A stretch of 64,000 nucleotides of DNA from Thalia democratica (Eukaryota): contig OZ241833.1 in assembly GCA_965202585.1 (NCBI GenBank), positions 43,772,001 to 43,836,000 of the forward strand. Reading direction: 5' to 3'. Under the pieces are notes generated by a model, which was not told the origin of the DNA, made no database searches, and saw only the letters and a list, made by a program, of their open reading frames with translations. The position numbers and the translations under genes were made by a program. Shown here one piece after another: positions 1-64,000 of this stretch (position 1 is the stretch's first letter; the number at the start of each line of letters is the position of its first letter).

Positions 1-2
1 AA

Positions 3-122
3 CTTATGAACTCTAAAGCATTTAGTGTGGCTGAGGATATCGGAAACGACGTCATAGATATAATTAATTTGACTCGTTCTTTTTTTACATGGTATGAAGT
101 AACTTTTGTTGGATATGTTTGA
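3..122 (+). CDS. 3' end of a membrane-anchored family gene (copy A0, C-terminal subtype B), cut by the window edge
   Basis: The frame from nt 3 reads LMNSKAFSVAEDIGNDVIDIINLTRSFFTWYEVTFVGYV* (TGA 120-122). This matches the ends of the ORFs at 31509-32588 and 55616-55834, and the same 3' flank follows. Whether the gene is intact cannot be seen. Confidence 0.75.
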   Translation, partial: LMNSKAFSVAEDIGNDVIDIINLTRSFFTWYEVTFVGYV

Positions 123-3100
123 AAGTACTTTGTGAAATACTTTTGTGAGCTTTATACTATTAATTTATTGAAAACTATTACATTATTTGTAATTTATTTT
201 TTATATGTTTGTGTATAAATTGAATTTGTTGTAACTGTGTTTTTTTTTGAATTTACTATAATAAAGTCTCCGATAACTAAAAAAAAATTCTGCTTGTTTT
301 GTAAAGTAAATAAACTAATTTAAAACAGCCTTATTGTGCTTATATCTCAGTGTTATCGAAAAATATCTGTTACCACAAAGTTTTCTAACTGATAATCGTT
401 AAGTCATTAGAAGAACTCTAGAATATTTAGCATACTCACATTAACATCCATAGTAGTTAAATCAAATAAATATATTTGAACAAGGATATAGCATTTGGTA
501 GTTTTCAAAAATTGACAACGCATTTAAAAACGTTAATTCATAAAATGTATACAATAAAGGTTATCATCTAATAATAAAATAATTTTAAGACCAGGTAGTC
601 ATCTTGTTATAAAACATCAAGTTAAGTTTTGAAGTTCCAACTTGTTATAAAATATTTAAAAACGTTTTAGAAGTTAAAAAAACTTTTTTTACGTCATTCT
701 TAAATATTTTTTTTATATTTTTTTTAAGTAGTTCTGTTTATAAAACAGAAGTCGGCAGCCTTTTACAAGAAAATTTTCAAAAAAATTGCTCGCGAGCAGC
801 ATTGTATAAAAAAAAGTCTTACGCTAGTAGAACTCAAACTTGTTAGATTTACACAAATTCTTTTTTTTTATTTTAAATATTAATGCGGGAGAAACACTTC
901 TTCACTCGAATACTTTGTTGTTTTTTTTATCTGTAATGTATATTGAAGCTATATATATTGATATATTTAAAACCTTATTCCCCACAAACCTAATCCAAAC
1001 AGATTGAAACAATAAAACATAAGGTTTTAATATAAAAATTAAAGAATAAAGTAAAAACTTTTTTTAGATAACTCAGCAAATATGCAAATCAGACTGACTT
1101 TTAAGCTTATCAGCCGCAACGACTACTTTTTTGTTCACAACAAGCCGTAAAAATTTAAAACTAACATTTAGCAAGAAAATTTACCACGTAGCAAAATGAG
1201 TTTACTCTAGTTGCAGTGTAATCTAAAGTTTAAAGTTTCAGTCGGCGGTTTAGATGTGGAAAAAATTAGTCTTTTGCGTGCCTGAGCACTTCAAATACAT
1301 TTAAAGTACAAAAATAACTTGATTTTGCGATTTATTTCGACTAAACTCATGAAATCTTTTCTATGCTACTTAAATTATAAATTTACCCTGAATTGTCTGA
1401 GCCTTTTTTTTAATCTGCATTTTAAATCCACACTACAAGGAGTGAGTTTTAAAATCAGGTTCACCAGGTAAGACTTAGATGCTCTCGGTCTGCACTTTTC
1501 CTTTTGCCGGCTGAGCTCCACAAAAGTTCCGGTCATTTTCAACTCAGGAGCCGGATGGCTCGCAGGCCGTTAGCTGACCGACTTTATTTTAAATAGATAA
1601 TTAATTGATAACACATTAGTAGGGTTTTTCAAAATTACATTGAGTTTAACGCTATTATAGAAGTTTAACTACCAAAGGTATCTTATTAAAGAATTTAAAT
1701 AGTCTTAAATTCGTCAAAACTTATACTTTTAAACTTAGTTATACAGATAATAACCTTTGCATTTACTTAAATGGGTAATTTAGAACATTAAACACATTTT
1801 TTTTGATTCGTCCCATAATAAGAATACAAAAACTATTTTGTGTATGAATTATTACTTTTTAGGAAAACATAAATAATATTCTTTCAATTTATTAGTGTTT
1901 TTCTATCTTCTAAATAATCTGATAGAATTTTTTCAAATATTAACATTTAAATGCTTAAAGTATAGATAGGTTATAACGTCTTTTTTTTTTTTTTGTTTTA
2001 CGATTATACCGACAATTACTACACCTAGGAATATTCGTTTTAGCTTGAGTTTGTTAATTGGATTCTGATGACTTTGATCTAGCCTAGATTGTAGCAAGCT
2101 CTATAATATTTTAACTGTAGTTACATTATAACAAAAACAAATTAAACTATTATATCTTTTATTTATGTATGTTTACAAAGTTTTTGGTATAATTTTTATA
2201 AAAGCAATAAATTTTTAAGTTATTTACTAAATTACTGTTAAAATATGAAATATAGATATCTTGCTAGTTTTTTAATTATTTTCTTTTTATCAAGAAATAG
2301 TACTAGTAAACAGTCTTGATGTATAACTTTTGCTCATTTGTGTTCTATAGGTATGTATGCATTTTAATAAAATGGTACGTTTTTTTTTCCTGAAACAACC
2401 GTTTTACTTTTCTGATGAATGATTAAATTCTCATTCAGTTTTATGATAACAAAATATAATAAAATATATGTTAAAATTATGGTAAATTTAAGCAATAACC
2501 TTAAGCATCGTTACGTCATATAATTAATCAGTTTTAAAAACTACAAGACACGTTGAATTTTCATTAACGGTTAAATAAATTAAAATAAACTTCTGCTTTG
2601 GAGTTGTACAATCACATAAGATTCAGTTTAAATATCTAAAAAAGTTATAAAAATTTAATTTTGAAAAACAAGTGTCTTTCTATGAACTTTACTTTTTGTA
2701 GTTTTAGAATCAAAAAACATTGTTTTTTTTTAATAAATTGTGTTGTAGTATAGAATTTAATTGTGCTTACATTTCAAAATATATTGACCACTTTTTTATA
2801 ATATTTTATTCACATGAACAAGTAAGTTATTTTTTATAACAAGATTAGAGGTTAATAAATAGCAAATTAAAGTATAGGAAAAATCAAAACAAATATTCAG
2901 TCTAAAAAAAAAAAATCACAAACCAAAAATTATTTTGGTCATTATTTTATATGCATTGTAAAAGTTACGTTTATGCTTTCTTTAATATTTAAGCTTGATA
3001 AAAACTAATAATAAACAAATCAAACTTAGGAAAAATTTAACTAGATAAAATAAAGCATTAAATAATAATCTTTCTCTAGGAAAACTTGTTAGGAATGTTA

Positions 3101-3560: not shown

Positions 3561-5525
3561 CTATATATTAAATACAATTAAATATGCAGGTACCATTCCT
3601 ACTGAAGGTGTTTCAATCTTATTTTCAGGATTACTAAAAGAACCAGAATAAATAGAACAACCTCTACTGTCTGATTTCAATGTATTTTTCTCATAGTCGA
3701 CAGGTTTTTCATGATATCCTCCTCCCGATAAACGTATTCTTTTAACACTTCGATCACGGAACACATTCACTTTTCCCTTGCCCACAACAAAAACAAATGA
3801 CAATTTCTTACCTTCACCGTCAACACTACAGTAGCTGTTACCTTTTGAAAGCTCTGTTGTTAAAACATTAGACGCCTTACAAGAGCAATTGTTAGTGCGT
3901 AAGATGTCTTTTTGACCGAAGCACTCTTTTTTGTACTGTTCTTTATAAGAATTCCAACCATTTGGATAACCAGACTCAAGTGTGTTTATAATTTTGTCAG
4001 ACTTAATTCCGTGAAGGTAGAGGGAAGTATTTTGAACTTTTTTAACCTTGTTTTGACCAACGGGATTAACTCTAAAGATATAGAGAACATTTGGGGTATT
4101 TTCAGACTTTTTATCATTTAATGAACGAAATATAAACTGGTAATCCTTATCTGTAGACTTTAATATTTCAGTCCTGTACATCAGTGAATTATTGTTACTA
4201 ATTTCCAAAAGGCTATCTAAACTAAATGACAACTGTTTAGAAATTGTATTAATTTTATGATCGAATTGAGATTCAATTAGTTCAACTTGTGGTCTTTGGT
4301 TTCTAGCTATTTCCGCTTCAAATTCTAAATAAAACTGTTTAGAAGTGTAACCGTTTTTAGTTGTTAAACTACTTTGATATTTAGAATTCGTAGACAGACT
4401 TAGAGGCTTTATTTTGTTTTTAGTTTGTTCGTAAATAAATGGCCTATGCATTTGTAATTTGTCGTACAGTACAAATTTAACAACTTCTTGCACTTCTTCT
4501 TTAACTTTAACTTCTATCAAATATGCAGGAGTAACTAAATCATGATGCGCTACAGCTATTTTCTGTCTATCAAAACCATACTGAAATGTGCCATTGAGAA
4601 TTTTGTTAGTCTGACTGTCAAAAGTATCTTGAGGAGAATCTTTGAAACTTGTTTGCTTATAATGTGAATGAGCATCGAAAACCTTTAGGGCAGGCTCTTT
4701 ATTTGCATATTCGTTTAAAAGTTTTTCCGATTGTGCAGGTCTGAAACCAAGGAAACTAGGCAATAGCACTTTCCTTCCATTTGTATAAAAAGAAGAAGAT
4801 TTTGGAAGTGCAAATGCAATTTTACTTTTTTTCTTTGCACCTAACTGCTCTACTTTACTAAATTTCGTAGATTTCGTTTTACTCTTGGTACGTTTTATTT
4901 TATTTACAAACAAGTAACTCAGGTTCTTCGGTATACCTTCGTCATTCACAAAACAATTACCATAATTAAAAGCATAATTAAAACAGTCAGTTGTATAGAC
5001 TCCAGGGCCATAGCTACCAGATTTCGACGGTCTGAATCCTTCTTTCAGTATACCTTCAACATTTGGCCCCTTAGTTCCATGAAGTAAGAGCAAACTAGAA
5101 GATTCTGAGCTTTTCGATTCCTCAACGTCTTCATCAGTTGCCTTCACTCTGTAAATATTGTACGTAAGTTTCTTTTTTATTAGTGTGCGCAATCCTTTAT
5201 TAGATATAGTTTCTAAAGAGCTGGTTAACTTAGGATCTGTATCCAGCGAATTTTTTAAAGTCACATAGTCTGGATCATCTTTTTTCATTAGTTCAAGTTT
5301 GTACTTAAAACTTGGAGAGGGAGTTTTGAAGCTTGAAGTATTGTACCGAAACATTTCTTTCACTTCTTTTAACAAACATTCTTTTGTTTCCTTTAATTCA
5401 TTTTCTAAATTTCCGATTTCTTTACAAACCTTGTCTCTTTCTTTATTACAAAGATTGCGAAAAAAGTTCTGAGGACCAGAACAGCTTTTTATTAACTGAT
5501 TTAAGTTTGAACCATTCAAAAACAT
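3561..5525 (-). CDS. PARP-family (ARTD-like) protein with two tandem ADP-ribosyltransferase-like domains, intronless, 654 aa
   Basis: Domain 1 has LLLHGT (H149), GILKEGF, GSYGPGVY (Y177) and the terminal VTPAYLI strand typical of PARP catalytic domains. Domain 2 repeats the layout (IFRV...LYLHGI at H505...LSFVFV...MVPAYLIVF) but lacks the GxGxY motif. Confidence 0.85.
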   Translation of the reverse strand: MFLNGSNLNQLIKSCSGPQNFFRNLCNKERDKVCKEIGNLENELKETKECLLKEVKEMFRYNTSSFKTPSPSFKYKLELMKKDDPDYVTLKNSLDTDPKLTSSLETISNKGLRTLIKKKLTYNIYRVKATDEDVEESKSSESSSLLLLHGTKGPNVEGILKEGFRPSKSGSYGPGVYTTDCFNYAFNYGNCFVNDEGIPKNLSYLFVNKIKRTKSKTKSTKFSKVEQLGAKKKSKIAFALPKSSSFYTNGRKVLLPSFLGFRPAQSEKLLNEYANKEPALKVFDAHSHYKQTSFKDSPQDTFDSQTNKILNGTFQYGFDRQKIAVAHHDLVTPAYLIEVKVKEEVQEVVKFVLYDKLQMHRPFIYEQTKNKIKPLSLSTNSKYQSSLTTKNGYTSKQFYLEFEAEIARNQRPQVELIESQFDHKINTISKQLSFSLDSLLEISNNNSLMYRTEILKSTDKDYQFIFRSLNDKKSENTPNVLYIFRVNPVGQNKVKKVQNTSLYLHGIKSDKIINTLESGYPNGWNSYKEQYKKECFGQKDILRTNNCSCKASNVLTTELSKGNSYCSVDGEGKKLSFVFVVGKGKVNVFRDRSVKRIRLSGGGYHEKPVDYEKNTLKSDSRGCSIYSGSFSNPENKIETPSVGMVPAYLIVFNI

Positions 5526-5547
5526 TTTTTCATTGATAATTAACTTA

Positions 5548-14299: not shown

Positions 14300-16144
14300 T
14301 CTACCAACGCAAAATTTTGTCAAAAAACATAAATCCCAAAAATAAACGCACGTTTGAAACTTTGTTTGTATTTTTTTTTGTTATGTTATTGCAAAGTAAA
14401 TTGGCTATTGATTTAACCATTCAACAAATGAAGCGACTTTGATAAATACTTCTTGAACCAGTTTAGCATGAGAAGTTTTAGTGTTTTTCAATATGAATTT
14501 TTACGAAGTATTTTTTCAATTTGACACTGTCATACTTTAATTTTAAAACTTTATCTGACCTTGATTTGTTATAGCTTTTCATATTACAAATTATATCTTT
14601 AAAATATTGAAAGTAAAAATTCGAATAAATGGGTTTTAAATATGATGCGGTTACTGTTTTGACTATAAATATTTTGTTAACTACATTTGAAACGTTCACA
14701 AATATCTTTAATTCAGTTTAATTATCATAAACTATCAAATATTTATTCGTAACATTAAAATACAATTTTATATATTAGTTCGTTTTCCTGTGTATTTAAA
14801 GCAAAAAGTTTAATATTTTAAAAATACAAGGTACACTTCTAATTTATTTTAAGTTTTAAATCTATTCAATATAAATTATTTAAGTCAATCTAATCGTACT
14901 TTCTGTTTTGAAATTTTCTCAAGAGTAATTAAACTAAACATTAACACATCAAGCTGTATAACTTTACTATGCATTAATATTTAATTTATTATGATATATT
15001 ACTGTAAACTTTTCTTATTTCACATAATTATATACTTGTAGAAAAAATTCAAACGTTTTAAAAATTAAATTAACAGCCTAGATTTGTTAAATTTACGTCA
15101 TAAGTTGTATTAAGCAGTTAAATCAAGCTTTTACACATTATATGCGTGATGATAAATAGTTTTTAAAAATCTACCTTAAATATGCTTTTTTGAACAAATT
15201 AATCGCTATAGAATAAATATTTTAACAAATTCACTTTTATAGCTAAAATTTTTAACAAATGCTTTATAAATGTGCTTAAGGTTATAAACATCAAAAAGAA
15301 ATTTACAGGAACTAATGTATCGTACTTTTGAATATATTTGTTTAAACTAAGAGGTATCAAGCAACAAGAAACATCTTTTCGTTTAAAAAAGTTTTGAAAA
15401 TTTATATGATGTTCTTTTTTATTTTTGAATTTTTAGCTATAGTTAAACTAAGCTGACTACCTGATCTTTAAATTATTTTGTAGTTAGATAATAACTTTTA
15501 TCATATGACTTTTATGAATTGACGCTTTTAAGTGCCATATCAGTTTTTGCAAATTACCAATTGCTGTATCCTTTTTCAAAAATATTTGATTAATTTAATT
15601 ACTATGTTAATTTTAGTATGCTAAATCTTCTATTGATTATCAGTAAGATTACTAGAAAACTTTGTGGTAACAGATAGTTTATTATAACAACTAAAAAATA
15701 ATCACGATAAAGCTGTTTTGAATATTCTAAATCAAAAAAAGTATTTTTTTTTAATTATCGAAAAGTTTGTTAAGGTAGATTCAATATAAAAAAAAAACAA
15801 TTACAACAAATTCAATTTATACACAAACATATTACAAAATTAACAGCAAATTATATAATCGTTTTCATTAGATAAATAATATATAGCTCATAAAAGTATT
15901 TCACAAAGTATTTTCAAACATATCAAATAAAAGTTACTTAATGCCATGTAAAAAAGAACGAGTTAAAACACTTATATCTAACATGTCGTTTCGGATATTG
16001 TCAACCTCACTAAATGCTTTACAGTTCTCAAGTTTTTCAACGATGACTTCAAGTTGTCTTTGTATTCACCAAAAACCGAACAAAGATCTTGTTGTTCATT
16101 AACTTTATCAGTCTGGTCTCCATGTATAATCTAATATAATGATG
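14300..16144 (-). repeat. Inverted paralogous block of about 32370-34205
   Basis: The reverse complement of 14300-14360 matches 34145-34205 (tttatttttggga.ttatgttttttgacaaa). The reverse complement of 15420-15480 matches 33030-33090 (agtcagcttagtttaactatagctaaaaattcaaaaa). Homology continues into the gene 3' end. Confidence 0.8.
15914..16144 (-). pseudogene. 3' fragment of a membrane-anchored family gene (A1, subtype B), inverted and frameshifted
   Basis: The reverse complement aligns with the last roughly 75 codons of 31509-32588 (gaacaacaagat..., aaagcatttagtgaggtt..., tatgtttga) and contains indels. Confidence 0.75.
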
Positions 16145-18479
16145 TTAAACTGTACACATGTACAACAAATAAATCAAAAAATTGAGCTCACTTAATTAAA
16201 ACTTGACCTATATCTATTTCGGCCATCATCAACAAAGTCGAGATGTTCGTGCCATCATCATCGGTATTAGGTTGTCTCGGACATGGTTGTTTTGAATTTA
16301 TCGTTTACCAATTAAAACTTGAAATAAACAGAAGACAGTTTCAACCAATCAGAGGCTGATTATGCTGATGGTAGAAAGTGTTTTGTTGCACACCTGCCAA
16401 CAACTCGTTAGAATCATTAAACATTCTACACTTTTTGATGAGGCGAACAAATATTAACCTTTTTTTTGCTAAAACGACTACTTAGCTTGGACGTCTCAAA
16501 GATTCCGTACTATGGGACAAAATAACGTAAAATTAAAACGAATAACTTCACTTTTAAATACTAATGAATAAAAGTCGTCTTGTCCAAACAGCTGTAAATA
16601 AACTGTGCAGTGTTAGGTGTAATATTTATATCATGCTCGTGTGATATTGGATCTGATGTTTAATCGGGAAATTCTTTTATACTCAATATGAATTCAAGAA
16701 AGTGTGTAAAGAGTAATAAGATAATTAGTAGCTTCAAATAATTCCGATGTAAAATTAGAATCTTATTGCAAAATGACTTTCAATGAAGAAAGTAGTTCAA
16801 AAATTGTATTTATTCAGCTGGAAACTTGTCACTTAGTAAGACGGCCACATTCAAACTTGTAGTTTAAATGAATACATACAAAGGTTTCCTACTTAGTTAT
16901 TTTATAGACTATGTGAGTTAAGTTCTATGTAAACATTTGAAAAATATATAACTTGAGTGGTAATAAAGAAACAATATTTAAAATATGTAAATAAAAAAGT
17001 ACTTTTATTATTCAGATTTTAGCACTTTTAAAAGAGCACTTTTACTTTTTTTGAAGGCTCTTATGTAGGATAGGTATTTGAATTTAACAAAGTCTAACAT
17101 AATCTAGTAAGGTAAGTATAATAAAAATTAAAAAGAACTTGGTGCTAAGAATTTTTAAAAAATTACAGTTGGTTAAATCTATATTAGATTTATAGACTAC
17201 ACAGCTTGCGAACTACGAAACTACATTAATTTGAAAACTTCTAGCTGACTTTTAATCGCAAAGCATAGTTTATAATCTCAAAGTATTTTAAAATATATAT
17301 TTTTTATGTTATGTGGTGTATAAATAACTGTGTTAAAAACATTTTTGATTGAAATTAGTTTTAACTGCTCTCCAATCATCTTAATTACATCTTAATAACA
17401 TATGAGTTGTTCTATATATTAAAAATGTAAATAACTTAATAACTTATTTTATTCTAAAAGTTAACTTGTCTCAAAACTTTCAATTTAAACAAATTAAAAA
17501 CGTTTTAAGTTCAAATGTAATGTTAACATTATTATAACATTTTATATAAATAACTTTTTTATGTTGTTACTAATTAAATCCTATCCAAATTTTTTTATTA
17601 TCAATAAGTCCTGTAAGCTACTTCTACTCATTTAAAATACTTTTGTAAATTTAAAAGACACACAAAATTTTCAACACAGAACTATTAACGTATAAAGTGT
17701 GTTTTTAGCATAAATAAAGCTAATTTGATTTGTTTTTTTTTTCTTTAACAAACTATATTAGAACTGTTAACTTAGTTTTAGCTTTTTTTTTATATAAAAT
17801 ATTAAACTTTTGGTTTAAAACTAGTTGTTTAATTCTTTTCTTCAATTCAAAACACATTCAGGTATTTAAAAGTCTATTTGCAATAATAAAACTTTCATTT
17901 AAACTTGATGTTAGTTCGAACAAACTGCTTATTGGGTTTGTTGGAGTGTCAGCTACGTTTGGTGCTCTTTACTACTTGTCTCATCAAAATAAAATAAACA
18001 AAATCTTTAAAGAGTGACGATGAAATATCAACAGGAGAAAGAGAAAAACCTAGTAGGTTGAATGGAAGTAAAGTAGTTAGTAAGTCAAAATATGAAAATT
18101 TTTTCGGATATTCGTAAATTGCATGCTAAAAATGATCATCACAATACAAACTTTGCGTGTGAAGGAATTCAGACATTGGATAGTAAATGGCAATCACCTA
18201 ACACTGAATCAACATTCACACAAAACAAGGATGAAATGGTTAGTTTGGGTGGATCTGATGTAGACTAACAGGTTGAAAATAATAGCAACATTAAAACCAA
18301 CGACGACAAACCAGAAAAAACTGAATCACTTTTAAATGAAAACCAAGACGAAACTAGTCAAATAGAGCTCTGTAAAACTACTGATGCTCCTAAAAATTGT
18401 GACGATAAAAGTGTGATGGAATAAAAGAAGAACCATTGGCAGGAGTATTAATCAATAAAGAAATAATAACCCTCTAAAG

Positions 18480-18676
18480 CAGTGCTTCTAAATCTTTTTC
18501 TAAAGGCGGAACCCTTTTCCAAAGTTTAACTTTTCCGCGAAACCCCTAATTTTAATTTTACATGAAATGTTTAATTAAATAAATAATCTTTTTTAAATTT
18601 CGAAAGGCTTTGCGGAACCCCTGAGAGGCGTAGCGGGACCCTAGGGTTCCACGGAACCCCATTTTAGGAAGCACTG
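18480..18676. mobile_element. hAT-superfamily MITE (197 bp)
   Basis: The TIRs are cagtgcttctaaa and ttttaggaagcactg. The 8-bp TSD is ctctaaag/ctctatag (1 mismatch). Confidence 0.85.
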
Positions 18677-18964
18677 CTCTATAGAATACCAAAGAATAAA
18701 GAAATGTTAATAAGGAAAACCGTGTTGTCAAGAAAAAACATCAAAAGATAAATCTTTTGTAAATGAAAATCCAGATAAATTAAGAGCAGAGGAGGAAAGT
18801 AAAGCTAATGATGCTTATCAAAGTCGTGAAGACGAAAATATTTTTGAAAAAAAATGACCTACATTCGTAGAAGAGTCAATTACAGAAGATACAGGTGAAG
18901 CTAATGAACTTCAAAAATATCCCCTATACAATAAAAGTTCTGTTAAAGAAAAGAAAAACGTTTA

Positions 18965-21338
18965 CATGGTTGCCACTGATCAAGCTGAGAAAAATTTCCT
19001 GACCTTTCCTGACTTTTTCCTGACTTTTTACCAAAATTTTCCTGACTTTTCTAAATTAAACATATTCTAAAAAACATAATCTAACACTTGAAACTATATA
19101 TAGCATTCAATCTTATTTTAATACAGGTCAAAAACAACAGTTTTTTGCTGAATTCTATTATCAAACTTCCAGCACATCACTTAAACCATCTGTGTATGAT
19201 TGATACTTCTAATAAACAGCTCTATCAGCAAAATACTTGTATTATTACCTATAAACACAGTTTGTCTGAAATAAGACACAATTTTTAAGCATTTCCTAGC
19301 ATAAATGTATCTAGATAAACAAACGACACATAAGGACCTTTTACAATTAAAACCTTAAATTAAGGCCATGGGGGGGGGGGGGTAGAAGCCATTTTTTGAC
19401 CAAAAATAACATATAGACTTATATTATAGTAAATTTCATAATCTTTCAGATGCTTTTTTTAGATTTTAAAAATATTAAGTAACTTTTTTTTTATGACCGG
19501 TTATATAAAGGGTTGTCTTTATAAAGGGTATATAAAGGGTAACTTAAAAGCCGTTTTTCTCGAGTTTTTAAAAACGGGCTTTAAAATCTATCTTCTCCTT
19601 CATTTTTCAAGCAATCTTCTTCAAATTTTCAGGAAGTGTTTCTTACATTATGAGAAAAAAACATTATTTGTGAATTTAAATAATTATAAAAAATAAAAGT
19701 TTTATGAAAAAAAAAAAAAGTGAGTTTTTATCAAAAATTTTTTTTTTTCAAAAAAAAGGTATTTTTACTTGAAATTTTTCAAAGTCACAAATAACGTTTT
19801 TTTGTTATTGTATAAAGAATAGACTGTAAAAGTTTGAAGAAGATTGCTTAAAAAATGAAGGAGGAGATAGATTTTGAATACATTAGTCTTTTTTCGCCGT
19901 TTTAGTTTTTCCTTCCCCGTAAGGAACCTGTTATGCCGCCCGACTTTGGCCGGTCATATCTCAAAAACTAATTCGAATTTTAAAAAATGGTAAAAAGCAA
20001 CTTGAAGCTTAGTAAAAACTCTATAAAATAAGATCAACTTGTAAAAAACATGGCCTACCCCCCTATGGCCTTAATAACGAACTTTCACAAATAAAATTTT
20101 AAAACATTAATAAATGTTTACAGTTGAAACTTTAAAATAATAAAGAACACAATTTTTTAGCATTTCCTAGCATAAATGTATCTAGATAAACAAACGACAT
20201 ATAAGGAACTTTTACTATTAAAACCTTAAATTAATAAGGAACTGTCACAACTCAAATCTTAAAACAATAACGAACTTTTACAGTTAAAACATTAAAACTA
20301 TAAACAACTTAATCAAATGCTGTTTTTTTAAATGTATTTACTAAAATTTATTTTCTCTGTTTTTTTTTATTAGCACTTCAGACTCTTCATCTAATGAAGA
20401 TATGGTTTCCTTCATCTGAACTGCTCTCCGCTTCATTTTCTTGGCAGTTAAAATCATTTGCCTCATTTTATTTATATCGCTCTCATCTGCTGCCCCTACA
20501 CTTGTTGAAGAGAATCTTTTCTCTAAATCAAGCCACAACTTGTGGGCTTCATTTCTTTTCTTTTGGCACTTTTACTTTCATTTATAAAATACTTCCTCTT
20601 ATCATTTAGTATAAAACTTGTAACAAATAAATATACTCTTATATACTTTAAAAACTTAAGTTACTCTACAAAAAATACAAATAATATGTAAACTTGATCT
20701 TGGCATACACCTCTCTTATAACTTATTTTATAAATTTAAACAATTTTGAAAAAATTATAAAGAGGTAAAGTATACACATTAACTTGTTACATAAAATACT
20801 AAACTAACTGCTTAGTTATAAAGAACTCAATTATTTACTTAAACAAAAAACACTTTGATTCTAAAATTATGCTAGATAAACTTTTGTATATATTACAGTT
20901 TCACTATGGAAGTGTCCTTGCTACAGATCATCAATACTAAAGAGCTTACAAAATCTGCTTGTTCAAGTAGGATACTTGTTCAATATGTTAATAGAAAATT
21001 TTTGCAGTTTTGTAAAGGATATTTTAACAATTTATACCAAATGAAGGCATTGGAAATAAAATTAAATATGTTTGTAAATTTTTAGGAAAATTTTGGAATT
21101 TTTTTCTGACTTCAAAGGACTTTTAATTAATTTTTACTATTTGAAGGCTTTGGAAAACAAGGAATTTTCTAAGTTTAAACTGAAAAAATCTTAATTTTTT
21201 TTAATTAAATTTCCTGACTTTTCCTGACTTTTTTTAAAACCCCCCTTTTTTCCTGACTTTTCCTGACTTTTGTAATTTTTGTAAATTTTCCTGACTTTTC
21301 CTAATTTCCTGACTTTTCCTGACCGAGTGGCAACCCTG
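18965..21338. mobile_element. 2.4-kb DNA transposon derivative of the CAGGGTTGCCA family
   Basis: The ends are catggttgccact and agtggcaaccctg, with tttcctgactt subterminal repeats at both ends. The exact 6-bp TSD is cgttta, and removing the element restores the family gene sequence. A possible coding remnant lies at 20341-20538 (minus). Confidence 0.85.
19364..20070. mobile_element. Kolobok-like non-autonomous element nested in the 2.4-kb transposon
   Basis: TTAA flanks both sides. The termini are ggccatggggg and cccctatggcc (GG/CC ends, unlike the CC/GG ends of piggyBac). An internal inverted pair lies at about 19586-19630 and 19828-19875. The paralogous unit at about 20147-20240 shows the empty TTAA site. 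Confidence 0.75.
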
Positions 21339-30011: not shown

Positions 30012-30250
30012 CTGAGTTTCCCAAAGTGGGCCGTGACAGATACTCAGGGGGCAACGAGCAGCAAAGGGGTAAGATCGGGGCCATGAGGTCATAATTTGAA
30101 ACTTACACTAGATATTCTTGAGTTGCAGATGAAGAGAAAAAAGGTTTTTGGTGTTTTTTATCGTAGTTTATAAGCAATCTTGTTGAAGGGGCCCATGGCT
30201 TTTTCAACTTCTTTAAGGGGGCTATTTGCAAGAAACTTTGGGAAACCCTG
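30012..30250. mobile_element. hAT-superfamily MITE (239 bp)
   Basis: The ends are ctgagtttcccaaag and ctttgggaaaccctg, with an exact 8-bp TSD gtttagtg. The site is empty in the paralog at about 41560-41580. Confidence 0.85.
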
Positions 30251-41967: not shown

Positions 41968-43193
41968 ATGATAAAAGTTTCATTGAAACTTGATTTTAGC
42001 TCAACCAAGTTGCTTCTTGGGTTTGTTGGAGTGTCAGCTACATTGGGTGCTCTTTACTACTTGTCTCATCAAAATAAAACAAGCAAGTATTTCAAAAGTG
42101 ACGACGAAATATCCACAGGAGAAAGAGAAAAACCTTGTAAGTTGAATGATAAAAAAGTAGGGTTAGTAAGTCAAAGTATGAAAGTTGTTTCAAATATTAG
42201 TGAATTGCATGCTGAAAATGTTCATCACAATACAAACTTTACATGTGAAGGAATTCAGACATTGGATAACAATTCGCAATCACTTAACACCGAAGCAACA
42301 ATCACTCAAAACAAGGGAAAAACAGTACATTCGGATGGATCTAATGCAGGATCACAGGTTGAAAACAATAACAATTCTAAAACTAACGATAACAAACCAG
42401 AATGAAATAAACCTCTGTGAATGAAAAAAAATTAAGCCCAGAACAAACAAAACACAATAAAACTACTGGTCCTCAATAAGATACCAAAGACAATAAAAGT
42501 GTTGATATACATAATCAAAATGTTCAAAATGAAAACTCTATTAAGATAGAAAGCGAACAAGACCCAGATAATCTTAATTATTTTTAAATAGTTTAGAAAT
42601 TCTTTGTCTGTGTATAAATGTCAATCTGCAACAGTTCAAAAGCTAATGTAGTTTGCTCAATGATCATAAAGGGAACAAAACAAATAGAAGGAAAATTTTT
42701 AATAAAATTAAAGTAAAAGTCAGACTTTCGGCACAATTTACGACAAAATTCAACAATGTCTATCGTACCCTAATCTGCGAATTTTAGTAAACCAGATATT
42801 CAATTTTAGAACATTTTTGTGGAAAGAAGTAAAATCTGCAGAAGCATCAAGCAATAACAATTTTCAAGCGACTGAAAATACTAAAAAGTTGGTTGATGGG
42901 ATAGTTGAATATTTAAAACAGTTTAATATAGCAGTAGGCTTCACTATTCAAAGCTTATTATCATCATATCAAATGGTTCATAATGACCAGGCTGATTAAG
43001 CTAATGTAGAACAAGATTTGAGCTCGGCTTTTAGTAAATACAAAATCAGTTTGAAGTCAACGCTTGAAAAGCTTAATAACTCTAAAGCGTTTAGTGAGGT
43101 TAATAAAGTCCGAAATGACGTTATAGACATAATTATTTTAAAAAAAATGTAAAAAATACAATGTAAAAAAAAAATTTTTTTGGATATGTATGA
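41968..43193 (+). pseudogene. Membrane-anchored family pseudogene (A6, subtype B, short)
   Basis: The N-terminus is intact, followed by a premature TGA at 42403-42405, further stops and frameshifts. The fragment WKEVKSAEASSNN is at 42817-42999. Confidence 0.85.
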
Positions 43194-51099: not shown

Positions 51100-52626
51100 G
51101 TTTAGTGGTACTATTACAAAATCGCTTATTTATAACCAATATTTTACAATTATGTTATTAAAAACTTGTCAACTAACTTAAACAATACTAGTTTTAAATT
51201 TTCTTCCCTAAAGAGTTAGTCTTTAAAGAATTTCTGTGCAAGTGCTAGTCATAAGTTTATTTAACTCTAAATATATAAGTAATTAAAATGAAAATAAATT
51301 AAACTAACTTATATAAGTTCATACTTGAAATATTTTTCATCTACACAATAATATGCTTTATAAACAATAAGACTAAAAATTTTAAACCACTAAAACTTAA
51401 ACTAGTTATAAATACAACTTAGATACAATAATTTGACATATAAAATTTTAGATTATCAAAATTAATGTATATCACTAAATTATGTAATTTTGTGATTTTT
51501 ATTCAATTCAAATTTTTTTAGCTATTTACAAGTCTACTTGCAATGATAAAACTTTCATTTAAACTTGATGTTAGTTCGGGCAAATTGCTTATTAGGTTTG
51601 TTGGAGTGTCAGCTACATTTGGTCTTCTTTACTACTTGTCTCATCAAAATAAAACAAGCAAATTTTTAAAGAGTGGCGACGAAATATCCACAATAGTGAA
51701 AGAAAAATATAGTAGGTTGAATGGAAATAAAGCAGGGTCTGTAAATCATAACGTGAAAGTTGTTTCAAATTTTTGTGAATTGCATGCTGAAAATGATCAT
51801 CACAAAACAAACTTTGAATGTGAAGGCATTCAGACATTGGAAAATGATCAACAATCACCTAACACTGAAGCAACATTGACACGAAACAAGGAAAAAATGG
51901 TCATTTTGGATGAATCTGGTGTAGAATCAGAGGTTGAAAATAATGATACCAATAAAACTAACGATGACAAATCAGAAGAAAATAAAACTCATGTAAATGA
52001 AACCCACACAAAGCAAGACAAAAAGAGCTCAATGGAATCAATGATGCTCTTAATAATAGTGAAGACAAAAATATTGATGGAAGAAAAGAAGAACCCCCGT
52101 TGGCAAAAAAATCAACTGAAAAAGATACAGGAGAAGCTAGTGATCCTCAAAAATCAACCAGAGACAACAAAAGTGTTGATAAAGGAAATCAAGTTGTTCA
52201 AAATGAAAACTCTCACTAAATAGGAAGCGAAAAAGACCCAGCTGATTTTGATTGTTGTTTATTTAACTTTAAAATTTTTAGTCAGTATATAAAAGTTGAT
52301 TTGCAGCAGTTCAAAAAATTACGTAGATTGCTCAACGATCACAAGGGCAACAAAAAATAAGATTGAAAAGCTTTAAGAATATTAAAGTAAAATGTCAGAC
52401 TTTCGGTGAAGTTTACGAAGGAATTCAACAATGTTTATCGTACTGTGATCTGCGAAATTTAGTAAACCATTTATTTACTTTGAGAAAAAATCTATGGAAA
52501 AAAGTACAATCTGTAGAAGCATCCAGCAATAACTCAATAAGTAAAAACAATTATATAGTTACTGAAAGTACTAAAAAGTTGGTTGATGGAATAATCGAAT
52601 ATTTAGAACAGCTTAAAGTAGCAGTG

Positions 52627-55580
52627 AAACCAATGGCGGTTGGTGACTTAACATCCAAAGGTTAATTTACCCTAGCACATTCTTGCCCGGGGCTTAATTT
52701 AAGTGTGACTTTACTATTGGAATTTGACATATTTACTAATTTAGTCTAGACTTAGTATTACTAGATATAAATAACCAGGCACAACAATTGAGTGGGTTTC
52801 TCTTCTAAACGAACTTCAATGAACACAAAACCAATTGTAAAAGTCACAAGAACTATTAAATATGGGTAGCTGTCTAAATTGCGCGAGCGTACAAAATTGC
52901 ACGAGGGGACAAAATTGCACGAAAACACAAAATTGCACGAAGATACTTTTGCACGAAGACTAATTTGCACGACAGTACAAAATTGCACAAAGATAAAATT
53001 ACACGTAGACTAAATTGCACAAAGGTTCACTTTTGCACGAAGACACTTTTGCACGAGGGTATATTTTTGCACGAGCAGACAGTTTCGCACGCAGACACTT
53101 TTGCACGAAGGGTTATTTTTGCACGAGTGACAATTTAGCACGGAGGGTCAATTTTGCACGGGTTTTGTTTTCTTCCCAGGGACGGGTCAATATTGCACGT
53201 AGACATTTTTGCACGAGGAGACAAAATTGCAGGAGTAGACTCTTTTGCACGAAAAATTTATTTAATATTTTTAATAAGTAAAATTTATATAATATTTTAA
53301 AAATAAAAAGTAAAAACTAAAAAATTTAATAACTAAATAATAGAAAAATATGAAAAAAATTATATAATATTTAAAAAAAAATCTGAATTATAAAATTTAA
53401 TACCTAATTAATATAAATTAGAAAAAAAAAGTAAAAATAATAAATCAATTTAAAATAAAAAAAGTAAATAACTATTAAGTAGAAAATAACAAATCAAATA
53501 ATGAAAAAAAAATAATAACTAAATACAAAAAAAAGTATCTAACATTTTTAAGTAAAAAAAAATATTTTCCAGTAAATAAAAATTAAATGTTGAATAGATT
53601 AAAGTACAAAATAAAAAAATTCCGAATTTAAAAGTTCAGATAACTAAATAATAAATAAATTTTAAAAAAATAGAAAAAAAAAGATTTATAAAAATTAATA
53701 AATTGAAAAATAATTACATTAAATAAAAGTCCAAATTAAAAGTTAATAAAACAAATAAAAAAAGTCAAAATATATGATCTAAATAATAAAATAAATTTAA
53801 AAGGAATTTGAATAATTAAAAAAGTCATAATGAAAAAATTAAACAGTAAACAAAATCAATTAAAAAAATTTATATAAATAAAAATAAAACAAGATTATTA
53901 AATTAGATTCTAACCGTTATTAAAATATAATTACCAAAAAGAGTTTTGTTTATATTAATATTTTTTTTGTTAAAAATATAAACTAACTAATTGTAGCTGT
54001 TGTATTATTTTGTTTGTTTTATTTTAGTCAAAATCTTGTATCTCTTTTTTCTTCTAAAAAAGTAAGAAGGAAATTGCTTAAAACAGTGCTGTTTTGCAAG
54101 TCTAGTTTAGATAAAGAGAAAAAACAGAGCAGGAGAAATTTAAGGGCTAATCAGAGTAAAACGCGTGCAAAAGTGATGCAACTAAGATAAAGTTTAAACA
54201 AATAGAAATTAACGGTATGTAAATTATGTTTATAACTTTTATATAAAACTAAAAAAAAACAAGTATAATTTATGGAAGTACACAGCCATAACAGATCTTT
54301 CTTTACAATGCACAATAAAAATTTCATCAGACGGATTTTATCCTTTCTAAATTTATTTAGTTGTCTCACTATTTCGCATGCTCGTTTTTTTTTCTGTTTA
54401 AAAGTATCTTCGTGCAATTTTGTCCCCTCGTGCAATTTTAACACCTACCCATGTAAATATTATTTATTTATTTTATTTTTAATTCTGTTTTATTTCATAA
54501 TGAAGTTTAGTATAATTTTAGTTTAATTTAAGTTTACATCAATACATGTTTATTCTTTAATAAGGGATATTTTAATTAAAATAAAATTTCAGTTTAATTT
54601 TTATTAAAATTTTTTCCATTTATATTAGTTTTTAAAAACAATAATTTAGTTTCATTTCAAAAAAGCTATACAAATTAAAAAAATATATATAAATAAAATT
54701 AATATAAACCTAATTAAATTTAATTTAATTACACTAATACATTCTTATTATTTTTTTTTTAATATAAAGGTTTAATATATTTTTTTTTTAGTTATTTTAA
54801 GTTAGTATTTTTTTGTGCAAAATTGTAACTCGTGCAAAATTGAGCTTCCGTGCAAAATAGTCTTCGTGCAAAAGTATCTTCGTGCAATTTTGTTCTCGTG
54901 CAATTTTGTGTTCGCGCAATTTAGACCCGTTCCCATTAAATATGTAATTTTTGCACTAAATTACTGTATAATAACCACTATAAAAAACTCAATAATATTT
55001 TAAGAAACACTTAATATTAAATGCAAAACCAAGTTTTGAAAAATACAAGAACTATAAAAGTATGTCACTTATGTGAAAATGCTTTGTATTTAACCACTGT
55101 AAAAAATGCTTTTAATAAATTACTTGTTAAAGTAAAAAGAGCTATAAAAATGTACAGTAAGAGAATTACAAAACTTTCTTTAAATAACAATCTTTAAATC
55201 TAACAAATACTATTATAAATATATACACTAAAGCTTTATTAAACAAATCTATACCAATATTTAAGTGTCTTTCTTGTAAACAGTCTCTGCAGCTCCTGGC
55301 GGTTTAGCACACGACCCAGTCGGGACTATTAGCTTATGACTAAAAACAATAATAAAAAATTTCGTCAGTCAGTTTCATAAATGAGAAATGCGCTTTCATA
55401 CTTTTATTCTCTTTACGTCATAAAAGAAAATACGCTCTCATTCTCTTTCTTACTTTTTGTTACATCAGACTTTGCCCGTGTAAGAATTTCAAGTGCTTTT
55501 AATTAATAACTGCAATAACTCTTAATTTTCTCTTAAAAAAAAACGGTTTTCAAGTGAAACTTGGAATATCGTTAAAGCGA
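52627..55580. mobile_element. Unclassified insertion into A7 that hosts a Mutator-like element
   Basis: It interrupts the gene precisely. No TIR or TSD was recognised at the outer ends. Confidence 0.5.
52864..54934. mobile_element. Non-autonomous Mutator-like (MULE) element, 2071 bp
   Basis: An exact 9-bp TSD attaaatat flanks both sides. The TIRs are gggtagctgtctaaattgcgcga and reverse complement gggaacgggtctaaattgcgcga. Arrays of (a/t)ttgcacga subterminal repeats face inward from both ends. Confidence 0.9.
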
Positions 55581-57785
55581 TATGCTTCGCTGGTCAAAGC
55601 TTATTATTTTATAAAGTGAAACGTATTGACCATGCAGTTAAATTTAATAAACAACAAAATCTTTGTTCGGTTTTTAGTGAATACAAAGACAACTTGAAAT
55701 CTTCGCTTGAAAAACTTAAGAACTCTAAAGCGCTGAGTGTGGTTTACGATGTCGGAAACGACGTGATAGATATAATTAATTTGACTTGTTCTTTTTTTAC
55801 ATGGTATGAAGTAACTTTTGTTAAATATGTTTGAAAGTACTTTGTGAAATACTTTTGTGAGCTTTATATCATTAATTTATTGAAAACTATTGTATTATTT
55901 GTAAGTTAGTTTTTTGTTTTTTATATGTTTGTGTTTAAATTGTGTTTGTTGTAACTGTGTTTTTATTTTTATTTAATATAAAAAATCTCCGATATTTAAA
56001 AAAAATTTACTTGTTTTGAATAAGAAGTTTTAGAATAAACTAATTTAAAACAGCTTCATTGTGCTTATTTCTCAGTGTTATTGAAAGTTATCTGTTACCA
56101 CAAAGTATCTAACTGATAATCATTAAGTCATTAGAAGAACTCTAGAATATTTATCATACTAACATTAACATCAATAGTAGTTAAAAATAATAAAGTACAT
56201 CATATAAATTTTGAAAACTTTTTTTTTAAACGAAAAGATGTTTCTTGAAGCTTGATACCCCTTAGTTTAAACAAATAGATTTAAAAATTCGATACAATAG
56301 TTTCTGTAGAATTTTATTTTTATGTTCATAACTTGGAGCACATTTACAAAGCGTTTGTTAAAAATATTATCTATAAAAATGAATCTATTAAAACATTTAT
56401 TCAATAGCAATATAGCAATTAATTAGTTTAAAAAAGCATATTTAACGTAAATTTTAAAAACTCTGTATATCATCAACATTGAATGTGTAAAAGCTAATTT
56501 TAACTACTTAATACAATGTATGACGTAAACACGTCCATTTTTTTAGACACGTCGACTTCACAACAATATGCTTTTTAAATAATAATTATATAAATTAAAT
56601 TACTGATTGTTATTACTTTTGATGTTTATTTCTGATTTTCGGAAGACTAAAGTTTTTTTTGTCGTTTAGTCAAAAAGATTGTGATTAATAAAAATACCAG
56701 AGATCTATAACAGTTTATATTTTTTAACATACTGGCAACTAGTGTTAGATTGAGCAATAATTAAAGGTACTAAAGTTTTCATCTATTATTTAGCATATAG
56801 TCACTTTAATATCATGTTACTGTGATAAATAAAAACACACTATACATAGTTAGTGGTACTTTACTCCATTTCTTATACTTAAAGTATATTTATGGTTAGT
56901 AATTTAAAATTTTTGCAAATTCTGATGTGGTTTAGTTTTACTTATAAATTAATTTTTAGTTACACTACTTGCACTCCTTAGTGTAACATTTTTATAAAAA
57001 AATATTAAATTTTTAAAACAAACGTTAGGTGTTAAGGGAAAATTTAAATTTTTGAAAAATAATCAAAACACTAGCTGTGTATTTCCTTAAAAAAAAAAAA
57101 AACTATATATAAACTATGACTTCATTAACCATCAAAATAAAAGTTATTAAATTGAAAATAAAAAAAACTCACTTTATTCATATATTCTGTTAAAAGTTTA
57201 TAATATGTTATTATGCTAAACAAACACATGTTTTACTTAGTTATACTTTACTCTAATTCTTATACTTAAAATATGATTAACAAATTTATAAAAAAATATA
57301 TATTTTATGGTTAAGTTTTATTAATGGAATTAACTTATATTGTTTATATTATATATTGTATAATTTAAAAAAAATTATAAATCATTTTATTCAATGTTAA
57401 AATAAAAAAGATAAAATTTGTTATTGTAGAAAAAAACTAAGTACATTAATATTTACCTTTATAATAATATATAAACAAATAGATTTTATAAGTTCATTAG
57501 AAGTCAGAATAAAAGTTATAACGTTGAAAAAAATAAAAACTCACTTTGTTTTGTGTTTAAAGTGCATTAGAAACTTAATAAGTTGCTAATTATCTACATT
57601 ATTTACCATACATTAAAACTTTAAGTATTTGTTTATATTCACGAAATCCTGTTTTATTAATATATAAATTGTTTTAAAATAGCCTATATTCAGTATAAAT
57701 GTTACTAAAATCTTTCCTTAAATCTGAAAAAATTTTTTTTTTTTTCAATTTAAAACACTTTTATCTATTTACAAGTCTACTTGCA

Positions 57786-58110
57786 ATAATAAAGCTTTCA
57801 TTTAAACTTAATGTTAGTTCGACAAAGTTGCTTATTTGGTTTGTTAGAGTGTCAGCTACATTGAGAGCTCTTTTTTACTTGTCCCGTCAAAATAAATCAA
57901 AAAAATCTTTAAAAAGTTTTGACAAAATACCCACAAAAAATCAAAATTCTGGTAGGTTGAATGGAAATAAAGTAGGGTTAGTAATTCAAAATATGGAAAT
58001 TGTTTCGGATATTAGTAAGTTGCATGCTGAAAATGATCATCAAAAAACAAACTTTGCATGTGAAGGAATTCAGGCATTGGATAATGATCCACAATCACAA
58101 ATTTTTGTAT
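57786..58110 (+). pseudogene. 5' fragment of a membrane-anchored family gene (A8), tandem duplicate just upstream of A9
   Basis: ATG is mutated to ATA and the upstream acceptor AG to AT. The anchor is disrupted by charged residues (WFVRVSATLRAL). Homology stops at DNDPQSQ. Confidence 0.8.
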
Positions 58111-58237: not shown

Positions 58238-59566
58238 ATGATAAAACTTTCATTGAAACTTGATGTTAGTTCGACCAAGTTGCTTATTGGATTTGTTGGA
58301 GTGTCAGCAACGTTGGGTGCTCTTTATTGCTTGTCTCATCAAAACAAATCAATATTATCAAAAAAATATTTAAAGAGTGACGATGAAGTATCCACAGGAG
58401 AAAGAGAAAAACCTGGTAGATTGGATGAAAATAAAGCAGGGTTAGTAAGTCAAAAAATTGAAAATGTTCACGAAATTAGTGAATTGCATGCTGAATATGA
58501 TCATCACAATACAAACTTTGCATGTGAAGGAATTCAGATGTTCGATAACAATTCGCAATCACCAAACACTGAAGCAACATTGACACAAAACAAGGATAAA
58601 ACAGTTAATTCGGGTGGCTCTGATGTTGAAAATAACAATAATGAAACTAACGATGATCATCCAGTAGAAAATAAATCTCCTGTAAATGATAAACCATTTA
58701 TACCTAGAACACAAGAGCGCAATGAAACCAATGAAGCTCCTAATAGTCGTAAAGACAAAAATATTCTTGGAAGAAATGAAGAAGAAACTACATTGGCAGA
58801 AGAATCAGCAGAAAAAGATATCGGAGAAGCTAATGATCCACAAAAAGATACCAAAGACAAGAAAAGTGTTGATAAACATAGTCAAAAAGTTCAAATTGAA
58901 AACTCAAACGAACCAATTACTAAAAATCAAGCCTTTGATATATTAAATTCTTATTATAGAAATTTTAAAACTCTCAGTCAGTATTTAAGTGTTGATAAAC
59001 AACAATTCAAAAATTTGCGTAGCTTGCTCGACTGTTATGTTGGCAAAAAAAGAAACAGGTTGATTGTGATTCAAAAAATAAAAAAACAATGTCAGAATTT
59101 TGATGAAGTTTACGAAAATATTCAAGGTAGGCTTAGGAATGCAGCTATACAAAGCATAGTGAACCAAATATTCGTTTTGAGAACTAATCTGTGGAAAGAG
59201 GTTAAATTTGTGGAAGCGCGCATCAGTAATTCAAAGGTCGCTGATGAAATTGAAAGTACTAAAAAGTTGGTTGATCGAATAATCGAATTTCTAGAAAAGT
59301 TTAAAAAGGCAGTAGACTCAGCGGTTAAAGCGGTAGATTTTGCGCACAAAGTCCTATTATGTAATGAATCTGATAAAACTGAAGATTTTAAATGGGCTCA
59401 TAGTACGTACAATAACAGTTTAAAGTGTTCGCTTGATACACTTGACACATGTAAATGCATTAGTCTGCATGAAGATATGAAAATTGGTATTACTTTCACA
59501 GCAAATGTAATTCCTTTCTTTTTTGATAAATTTAATAAAAGTATTGCTGAAATACTTAGAAAATAA
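58238..59566 (+). CDS. Uncharacterised N-terminally membrane-anchored protein, 442 aa (A9, subtype A, short form)
   Basis: Intact ORF from the family-conserved ATG at 58238 (the ORF-track start at 58217 is a TTG). It has one polar module, and its C-terminal domain is close to that of A5. Confidence 0.85.
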   Translation: MIKLSLKLDVSSTKLLIGFVGVSATLGALYCLSHQNKSILSKKYLKSDDEVSTGEREKPGRLDENKAGLVSQKIENVHEISELHAEYDHHNTNFACEGIQMFDNNSQSPNTEATLTQNKDKTVNSGGSDVENNNNETNDDHPVENKSPVNDKPFIPRTQERNETNEAPNSRKDKNILGRNEEETTLAEESAEKDIGEANDPQKDTKDKKSVDKHSQKVQIENSNEPITKNQAFDILNSYYRNFKTLSQYLSVDKQQFKNLRSLLDCYVGKKRNRLIVIQKIKKQCQNFDEVYENIQGRLRNAAIQSIVNQIFVLRTNLWKEVKFVEARISNSKVADEIESTKKLVDRIIEFLEKFKKAVDSAVKAVDFAHKVLLCNESDKTEDFKWAHSTYNNSLKCSLDTLDTCKCISLHEDMKIGITFTANVIPFFFDKFNKSIAEILRK

Positions 59567-62500: not shown

Positions 62501-62750
62501 TAAACCCGAAAAAAAAAGTTTTAAATTAGTTTATGTTATATGTTCTTATTTAAAACAACTAAAGTGTTTTATGATTAACAAAAAGTTTATTGTAGTAAAT
62601 TCAAGGTAAAAAGACTCCAAAAGTTCAAGCAAAAATAAAACAAAATCAATTTATACATAAGCATATTACAAAAAAAAACAAATAAATAATATAATCCATT
62701 TCAATAGATTTAGAATATAAAGCTCATAATAATATTTCAAAAAAGAAATT

Positions 62751-64000
62751 TCATGCATATACAAAAAAAAACTTTCTTCATACCATGTAAAAAAAAAATT
62801 AGACAACATAATTATATCTATAACGTCATTTCGGACTTCATTAACCTCACAAAACGCTTTAGAGTACTTAAGCTTTTCAAGCGATGACTTCAAACTTATT
62901 TTGTATTAACCAAAAGTCGAGCACAGGTTTTGCTGTTCATATTTTATCAGACTGGTCATTATGTACCAATTGATCAGATAATAATAAGCTTTGAATAGCG
63001 AAGCCTACTGCTATGTTAATATGTTCTAAATAACCAATTATTCCACCAACCAACTTTTCAGTATTTTCAGTCACTTTAAAATCGTTTTAACTTTTTGAGT
63101 TATTGCTTGATGCTTCTACAGATTTTACTTCTTTCCACAGATTTGTTCTCAAACTGAATATCTGATTTACTAAAAATCGCAGATCAGAGTACGATAAACA
63201 TTCTTGAATTTCGTCGTAAATTATGCCGAAAGTCTGACATTTTACTTTAGTTTTATTAAAATTTTTCTTTCTATTTGTTTTTTTCCCCCTATGATCATTG
63301 AGCAAACTACGTAAGTTTTTGAACTGTTGCAGATTGAAATTTATATACTGACTAAGAATTTCTAAACTATGTAGACAAAATTAAAATTTAATCGGTCTTG
63401 TTCGCTTTAAATTTTGTTGAAGTTTTCATTTTGAACATTTTGATTATGTTCATCAACACTTTTGTTGTTTCTGATATCTCTTTGACGATCAGTAGCTTCT
63501 CTTGTATCTTTTTCAGTTGATTTTTTTGCCAATAGGGGTTCTTCTTTTGTTCCAGCAATCTTTTTATCTTCATGACTATTATGATTTTAGTAGTTTTATT
63601 TCGTTCTTTTGTTCTGGGCTTAACTAATTTTTCATTCACAAGAGATTTTTTCTCTTCTGGGCTGTCACCGTTACTTTTGTTATTGTTATTATTTTAAACC
63701 CCTGTGATCCTACAGTTGATCCATCAAAATTGACCATTTCATCCCCAGTTTTGTGTGAATGTTGCTTCGGCATCAAGCAGTTGTTGACAATATCTAAAGT
63801 CTGAACCTCTTCGCAGCCAAAATTTATTGATTCTTCTGCCAGTTTAGGTCTTTTTTTTTTGTTCAAAAACCATTTTTGTCTTCACGAATTTCATGAGATT
63901 TATTAGCTTTACTTTGCTCTTTTATTCTTGATTAATCTGGGTTCTTTATAACAGAATGTTTATTGTTCGACATTTCATTTTGAACAACATGGTTTACTTT
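62751..64000 (-). pseudogene. Membrane-anchored family pseudogene (A10, subtype B, long form), 5' end beyond the window
   Basis: The minus-strand fragments KKRPKLAEESINF, CQTFGIIYDEIQECLSYSDLRFLVNQIFSLRTNLWKEVKSVEASSNN and KSSLEKLKYSKAF are separated by stops and frameshifts. Confidence 0.85.

Follow-up and report, generated by a model that had tools for sequence, protein, structure and literature searches.

What is the family of predicted membrane-anchored proteins that occurs in eleven copies, two of them uninterrupted, within 64,000 nucleotides of the genome of Thalia democratica, and what could it do? This stretch (G000:C9:43772001-43836000, inside an 802-Mb genome assembly), referred to here as the window, was previously interpreted in a sequence-only reading as holding a lineage-restricted family under birth and death. 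Tunicates are the sister group of vertebrates. The family is real, under selection, and much larger than the window shows. Our tentative interpretation, held with less than even confidence, is that it represents a tunicate superfamily that tethers variable, predicted six-helix heads to an organelle, most likely at the mitochondrial outer membrane, with the heads facing the cytosol and serving as binding or sensing modules, probably in cell-autonomous defence.

The extent of the superfamily depends on which part of the protein is used as a query. The head domain gave 60 and 38 matches in the genome, nearly all on contig C9 and scaffold C350, whereas a 45-residue anchor query, with 150 of 235 candidates scored, gave 150 places to E 0.07, located on seven chromosome-scale contigs as well as on scaffolds. 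When four anchor queries were merged, at least 251 distinct places were obtained, 228 of which are on C1-C10, in 37 clusters or single loci. This number is a lower bound, since each query scored at most 150 candidates and an anchor hidden Markov model (HMM) found 17 anchors in one 100-kb stretch and 14 in a 90-kb stretch. The largest clusters are at C5:72.3-73.7 Mb (63), C9 (44), C5:77.2-79.1 (18), C1:39.1 (13), C1:38.1 (12) and C1:93.7-94.7 (11). Open frames of at least 420 codons were found at 83 of the 228 chromosome-scale places, and all 39 anchor matches that were fetched are true anchors, mostly at the start of single-exon open reading frames (ORFs) of 430-820 aa.

The full-length members that were read follow a common plan, in which a single coding exon encodes a predicted 10-residue alternating strand with a hydrophobic helix, then a polar stalk, and finally a helical head of ~215 aa at the C-terminus. 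In two loci on C4 (4.97 Mb and 56.08 Mb) the stalks are lengthened by short tandem repeats, yielding proteins of 773 and 823 aa. A YAG acceptor lies ~9-30 nt upstream of the ATG in 77 of 83 members, compared with 23 of 83 in a control window (35/38 versus 17/38 outside the C9 and C350 copies). Its presence in varying frames argues that the ATG is the start codon, and it probably marks a 5' intron or a trans-splice site. Among 18 scattered anchor loci, 12 have a head of a known subfamily, four are followed by a further unclassified ORF and two by nothing readable. Capture of the anchor from, or its fusion to, a known gene was rejected, as none of the 18 has another recognisable partner, judged by subfamily profiles and with Pfam not applied.

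Related proteins exist in other animals. An anchor profile compared with protein representatives gave 34 matches among 7991 scored candidates, all unnamed and from ENA assemblies, and a head profile compared with 1.84 billion representatives gave 12 matches; none of the eight family proteins looked up is named. Eleven full-length ENA proteins fall into the subfamilies of the T. democratica genome, with anchor identity of 53-91 % and head identity of 27-87 %, the anchor being the more similar part in all 11, which indicates that the subfamilies predate the split from these relatives. The proposed lineage-restricted birth and death is supported, and no housekeeping or transposon match was found.

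The anchor is the part that unites the superfamily. Its residues 2-11 show a hydrophobic/polar alternation, strict in the 626-aa gene of the window, and are predicted to form a beta-strand; a beta-periodic moment of at least 3 was found in 85 % of 41 anchors but in 0.2 % of other 10-mers in the same proteins. Residues 15-32 constitute a Gly/Ala/Ser-rich hydrophobic stretch ending in Tyr-Phe/Leu, which is predicted to be a membrane helix. The best 19-residue Kyte-Doolittle mean (1.37-2.17) lies at the N-terminus in 43 of 43 proteins and exceeds 1.6 elsewhere in only three. In a set of 27 diverse anchors Gly21 is invariant, while Met1, Lys3 and Asp9 are nearly so. Between 18 subfamily representatives the anchors are 51 % identical, and fourfold sites differ by 0.46, against 0.59 expected at saturation; because these sites are near saturation, the similarity reflects conservation at the protein level. 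A search of the ESM Atlas gave no usable match for either head or anchor.

The sequence-only reading had described the anchor as far better conserved than the rest, and the contrast itself is confirmed, although selection is only part of its cause. For 12 intact C9-type genes, our own codon models on IQ-TREE topologies with branch proportions fixed put omega (dN/dS) at 0.22 in the anchor, 0.65 in the stalk and 0.53 in the head, all three values being significantly lower than 1 (p 3e-8, 2e-4 and 2e-11, respectively). In the same genes mean identity is 86 % in the anchor versus 49 % in the head, and dS is 0.25 at the anchor versus 0.63 in the head. The tree of the 5' part and that of the head reject each other (AU p <1e-6 both ways), which, together with the lower dS at the anchor, shows that 5' halves have been exchanged between head clades within the C9 cluster. 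The difference between anchor and head is thus the product of selection plus homogenization. A significant positively selected class was detected in the stalk (p 9e-5), but this signal is unreliable owing to repeats and recombination.

Could such a family be the by-product of a genome that generally amplifies short single-exon genes, with few members performing an ordinary structural or adaptor job at a membrane while most copies drift? The C9 cluster offers arguments for this explanation. Within 576 kb around the window, the anchor HMM located 44 anchors between C9:43.69 and 44.22 Mb (~520 kb), of which 10 precede intact genes (438-627 aa) and 34 do not. The copies lie on both strands and ride with their neighbours in duplicated blocks of 2-10 kb at 80-97 % identity, stalk duplications accounting for the length differences among them; a PARP-like family has been amplified likewise, and the head omega near 0.5 denotes weak constraint. 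Nevertheless, this explanation appears quite unlikely, given that each of the seven alignments tested rejects an omega of 1 in favour of a lower value (0.32-0.49 for the heads of three other subfamilies), that intact members of several deep subfamilies survive both in clusters of their own and in related animals, and that the anchors have remained similar between subfamilies over a distance that nearly saturates fourfold sites. A transposon-encoded protein was rejected, as no transposase, reverse transcriptase, integrase or Gag Pfam family was detected, in an analysis that did not include a search for terminal repeats. The duplicated blocks differ from one another in length and in where they end, and the Pfam scans gave no confident match to a housekeeping or transposon protein.

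The head had been described as a helical domain of about 200 aa with no assignable fold, and a helical structure is now supported by confident models. AlphaFold2 predicts an all-helical window head (pLDDT 87.9, pTM 0.85) and, for a head of the C5:72 cluster, a matching six-helix layout (pLDDT 83.4, pTM 0.76), with helices 16-49 residues long in both; the columns R33, Y64, F84, W91, E93 and E122 are invariant. The top or near-top structural match is the PhoU-like 3l39 (Z 12.0, rmsd 3.1, 166 aligned residues for the window head; Z 10.0, rmsd 4.7, 164 aligned for the C5:72 head), and other whole-domain matches are 2iiu, 1t72 and 1sum (PhoU-like/DUF47) and 7voj (ALMT cytosolic domain). In PhoU/DUF47 proteins two three-helix repeats form one six-helix bundle, an arrangement that the heads may have. 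However, identity to these structural matches is 6-14 %, their Z scores are below the trust level of the tool for bundles, unrelated bundles lie within 2 Z units, and no PhoU Pfam family is listed, so that the resemblance concerns the helix arrangement only. PhoU/DUF47 proteins carry a repeated acidic metal-binding motif, whereas no paired E-x3-D is present in the family heads. Foldseek searches of PDB and viral models returned nothing at E 0.001 or better for the heads, and no Pfam family reached its cut-off for full proteins or heads. The MLKL, Bcl-2, BAR and mitoguardin-type folds are not among the top VIA structural rows, which does not exclude them. PDB sequence matches to coronavirus spike HR1 (E 0.007 and weaker), designed repeats and MerF were dismissed as heptad or repeat artefacts.

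Profile comparison, with reversed-sequence controls at or below 2 %, connects the heads into three groups, named here after cluster positions or loci. The first joins C9 to C5:72 (95 %), C5:72 to C5:77 (84 %), C9 to L125 (52 %) and C9 to C5:77 (49 %). A separate group links C1:39 to L130 (88 %) and C2:15 (30 %), and a third C1:38 to L143 (60 %). The three groups could not be linked to each other by hhalign (at most 6 %), although all heads probably descend from one ancestor.

Where the protein is located was addressed through the properties of the anchor. The earlier proposal was a mitochondrial outer-membrane anchor of the Tom20/Tom70 type, and the anchors resemble Tom20 in hydrophobicity. 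Using Wimley-White values in a fixed 19-residue window, which differs from the published method, the anchor score is below 0.4 in 43 of 43 proteins, and that of the T. democratica Tom20 is 0.28. The ten residues after the helix include at least two basic residues in 38 of 43 and at least three in 27 of 43. Mitochondrial signal anchors are described in a review (PMC4010795) as one moderately hydrophobic helix at the N-terminus with basic residues behind it, and the review reports no conserved motif in such helices; by contrast, the 32 residues of the present anchor constitute a conserved motif, including the alternating strand, and their basic flank is weaker. The mitoNEET N-terminus used as a genome query gave no match, and neither did GH6 (cellulose synthase), in searches that were uninformative.

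Several observations weigh against a mitochondrial anchor with a cytosolic head. Five P450 anchors of the same genome, presumably of the endoplasmic reticulum (ER) type, score 0.27-0.43 (four of five below 0.4) and have basic flanks too; owing to this overlap, hydrophobicity does not discriminate between mitochondrial and ER anchors. In 26 of 43 proteins the N-flank carries more positive charge than the C-flank (mean +2.9 versus +1.7). Along the ER pathway, this charge difference together with a short, weakly hydrophobic helix would favour translocation of the C-terminus and place the head outside (PMC2139883). In C9 members one or two basic residues occur among the first five after the helix, compared with four in Tom20 of this genome, and the C5:72 and C1:39 heads have three and four partly conserved Cys columns. 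The flank and hydrophobicity data would suit an ER-type N-terminal signal, in which case the proteins would be type II surface proteins, made up of a short fixed tail in the cytosol, the membrane helix, the stalk and an exposed head, or secreted after cleavage near Ala28, and would take part in recognition on the cell surface, in the tunic or in the house. According to column counts, many members have small residues at positions 26-28 that would suit cleavage by signal peptidase. Secreted defence families typically combine a hyperconserved leader with a variable body.

An ER route nonetheless seems doubtful, if far from negligible. Sequons are not enriched in either the stalk (255 versus 251 expected) or the K/E-rich heads (88 versus 95), and the stalk is poor in Pro and Thr and not mucin-like. 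There is no Cys pair common to all subfamilies, the C9 and C5:77 heads having one conserved Cys column each. Tyr31 and an aromatic or aliphatic residue 32 are conserved past the possible cleavage site, and some intact members have polar or charged residues inside the helix. The sequon counts close to expectation, the absence of a disulfide pattern common to the subfamilies, the composition of the head and the residues kept beyond the putative cut lead us to lean towards a cytosol-facing head. For the predicted anchor, the chances of a mitochondrial location are, on these sequence features, roughly even.

In the arrangement that we tentatively favour, the N-terminal strand and the predicted membrane helix would fasten the protein to an organelle on its cytosolic side, most likely to the outer membrane of mitochondria. 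Every member would have to keep the fixed anchor, for targeting or co-assembly, while the stalk would act as a spacer of variable length and the head as the specificity part, the heads presumably forming a diversified binding or sensing set, probably in cell-autonomous defence. Such an effector or sensor role is suggested by analogy. The lack of significant positive selection in the heads of four subfamilies (M2a versus M1a, p 0.22, 0.34, 1.0 and 0.09) speaks against it; among the paralogs, purifying selection was found in anchor, stalk and head alike. The same sequence evidence would also fit mitochondrially tethered proteins that are not immune sensors but work in the germline or in gametes, or that arose from genetic conflict (drive, mito-nuclear). 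Birth and death with 5'/3' exchange resembles conflict-driven families, of which the wtf family of fission yeast is one. We consider this unlikely, since no toxin-antidote pairing or alternative start was seen and subfamilies persist in relatives at 50-87 % head identity. Improbable, in our estimation, is a bolder version of the defence hypothesis, in which the fixed beta-strand and the Gly/Ala-faced helix would form a shared docking and self-assembly module. Hundreds of seemingly unrelated heads would then be displayed together on mitochondria, giving a chordate without adaptive immunity a sensor library that is encoded in the germline and recombines. The prediction of an anchor tetramer, with the alignment unused, scored 0.01 and speaks neither for nor against such an assembly.

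Among known systems, the closest architectural analogue appears to be the Armcx1-6/Armc10 family of eutherian mammals, which, in the accessible part of PMC5424104, likewise combines an N-terminal membrane helix and basic flank with a C-terminal helical domain, a single coding exon and a tandem cluster. According to the same text, Armcx proteins consist of armadillo repeats (DUF634), number six genes and have a known intron-bearing parent, whereas the present heads are predicted bundles of six long helices, occur in hundreds of copies with no parent found, and have a predicted location. No armadillo Pfam family was listed for full proteins or 20 heads at E up to 1, nor for 21 other heads at 0.01. 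As divergent, clustered helical immune regulators, the pals genes of Caenorhabditis elegans may be the closest analogue. In the accessible portions of 10.1101/145094 and PMC12937023, they are described as a lineage-specific, clustered set of helical proteins that have diverged strongly, their genes lying among those of another expanded family of the ubiquitin system, with PALS-22/25 acting in immunity at the mitochondrial outer membrane. On the other hand, the 39 pals members are defined by the ALS2CR12 domain, have a vertebrate orthologue and lack a shared N-terminal anchor or stalk, PALS-25 being targeted by its C-terminal half, with two four-helix bundles predicted, as these portions report. 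The likeness to pals is by description only, no sequence link having been seen or sought.

Within the window, tblastn, blastn and the head-domain HMM detected family sequence at all 11 positions given in the sequence-only reading, whose count of about 11 copies with two intact was correct. That the copies share the anchor is true of seven of the 11 inside the window. The longer uninterrupted copy (36143-38023, + strand, 626 aa) consists of the anchor module (36143-36244; residues 2-11 predicted strand, 15-32 predicted membrane helix), a K/N/S/E-rich polar stalk (36245-37369) that contains an internal ~540-bp duplication and whose disorder is suggested by composition, and the modelled six-helix head (37370-38023). 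A predicted splice acceptor (T-rich followed by TAG; 36113-36121), belonging to an intron or a trans-splice site, lies 21 nt upstream of its start codon. The other intact member (58238-59566, +, 442 aa) has an anchor, one stalk unit and a head at 58922-59563. A further full-length copy of 631 codons (30693-32588, +) is interrupted by one internal TAA at 31470-31472, as read in the assembly; three sequencing runs mapped to the window behave as genomic DNA, covering all 30 bins, and gave no cover at this codon. A very high-copy short repeat lies at ~30077-30142, where contig depth reaches ~190,000-237,000 in its bin compared with a few hundred nearby.

The other copies are decayed to various degrees. 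Those at 17883-22022 (+; frameshifts and insertions, head remnant at 21390-22006) and 57786-58110 (+; 5' fragment) have ATA instead of ATG at the start. Three copies are frameshifted or interrupted, namely those at 41968-43193 (+), which retains an anchor, 51543-55834 (+), whose head is split by a ~2.9-kb insertion (52630-55567), and 62751-64000 (-), whose anchor lies 625 bases past the window end, at G000:C9:43836625. Arrays of a 16-18-bp unit occur in opposite orientation at both ends of the insertion that splits the 51543 copy (52876-53160 and 54815-54922), in a foldback/MITE-like arrangement. Three more are 3' fragments without anchor: the last 39 head codons at 3-122 (+; HMM E 3e-11, blastn 90 % to other copies), a frameshifted piece at 15914-16163 (-; E 8e-12 and 5e-8 in two frames) and a head fragment with 11 stops at 22545-23270 (+; E 3e-32). 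Five anchors were also found on the unplaced scaffold G000:C350:22001-61343, 1-kb pieces of which match many cluster positions at 76-98 %, with collinearity over only ~3.5 kb around the 626-aa gene; the scaffold is either a piece of the cluster that the assembly left unplaced or a haplotype with extensive rearrangements.

Several other amplified genes accompany the family. The intronless gene at 3561-5525 (-) is PARP-like (PF00644, E 1e-8; ~654 aa) and carries, around residue 503, a second, degenerate repeat of the HG motif. At least five further copies of it lie in the C9 cluster, within duplicated blocks that also hold 3' ends of family copies. Its own family, with 938 candidates of which 150 were scored, forms tandem clusters on most of the chromosomes, and the 28 relatives found are all unnamed. 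PARP-like genes lie within 100 kb of five of 36 other clusters versus 1.0 expected (p 0.003), in a test that used 103 PARP-like places only and whose null ignores gene-family-rich regions. The size of the PARP-like family weakens this proximity signal and no PARP-like ORF occurs in 190 kb of two other clusters, both points counting against a functional connection in defence; proximity is a weak hint on function. A 1307-codon ORF at 23974-27894 (-) is the remnant of an IBR/Ariadne-type ubiquitin ligase and contains 32 copies, 96 % identical, of a 99-bp unit that encodes 33 aa with one Cys and two His; the remnant occurs four times in the cluster, the three shorter copies being without the array. 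A protein phosphatase inhibitor-2 ORF occurs twice in the cluster, at L039:5394-5816 (-) (PF04979, E 5e-25) and L072:9295-9726 (+). Elsewhere in the assembly, the mitochondrial COX1 on contig C1833 has AGA/AGG at conserved Gly positions (GGG before DPVL, G before HPEVY), corresponding to NCBI table 13, the tunicate code, and several decayed nuclear copies of COX1 are present at G000:C4:56.84-56.94 Mb and on C757.

As far as searched, the family is undescribed. No such family appears in listings and abstract openings of the literature on tunicate family expansions, and tunicate genome papers or their supplements, e.g. PMC10686999, may list it as an unnamed orthogroup. At least 250 genes fall outside any Pfam model or named protein found, and such a family would escape standard annotation, as head-based homology searches yield unconnected pieces; the 32-residue anchor provides a single handle on the whole superfamily. 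Targeting signals do not usually have a conserved alternating strand before the helix, and its presence here points to a partner or an assembly still to be identified. If targeting to mitochondria is true, the superfamily would represent the third independent lineage-specific expansion at that membrane, after Armcx and pals, and by far the largest.

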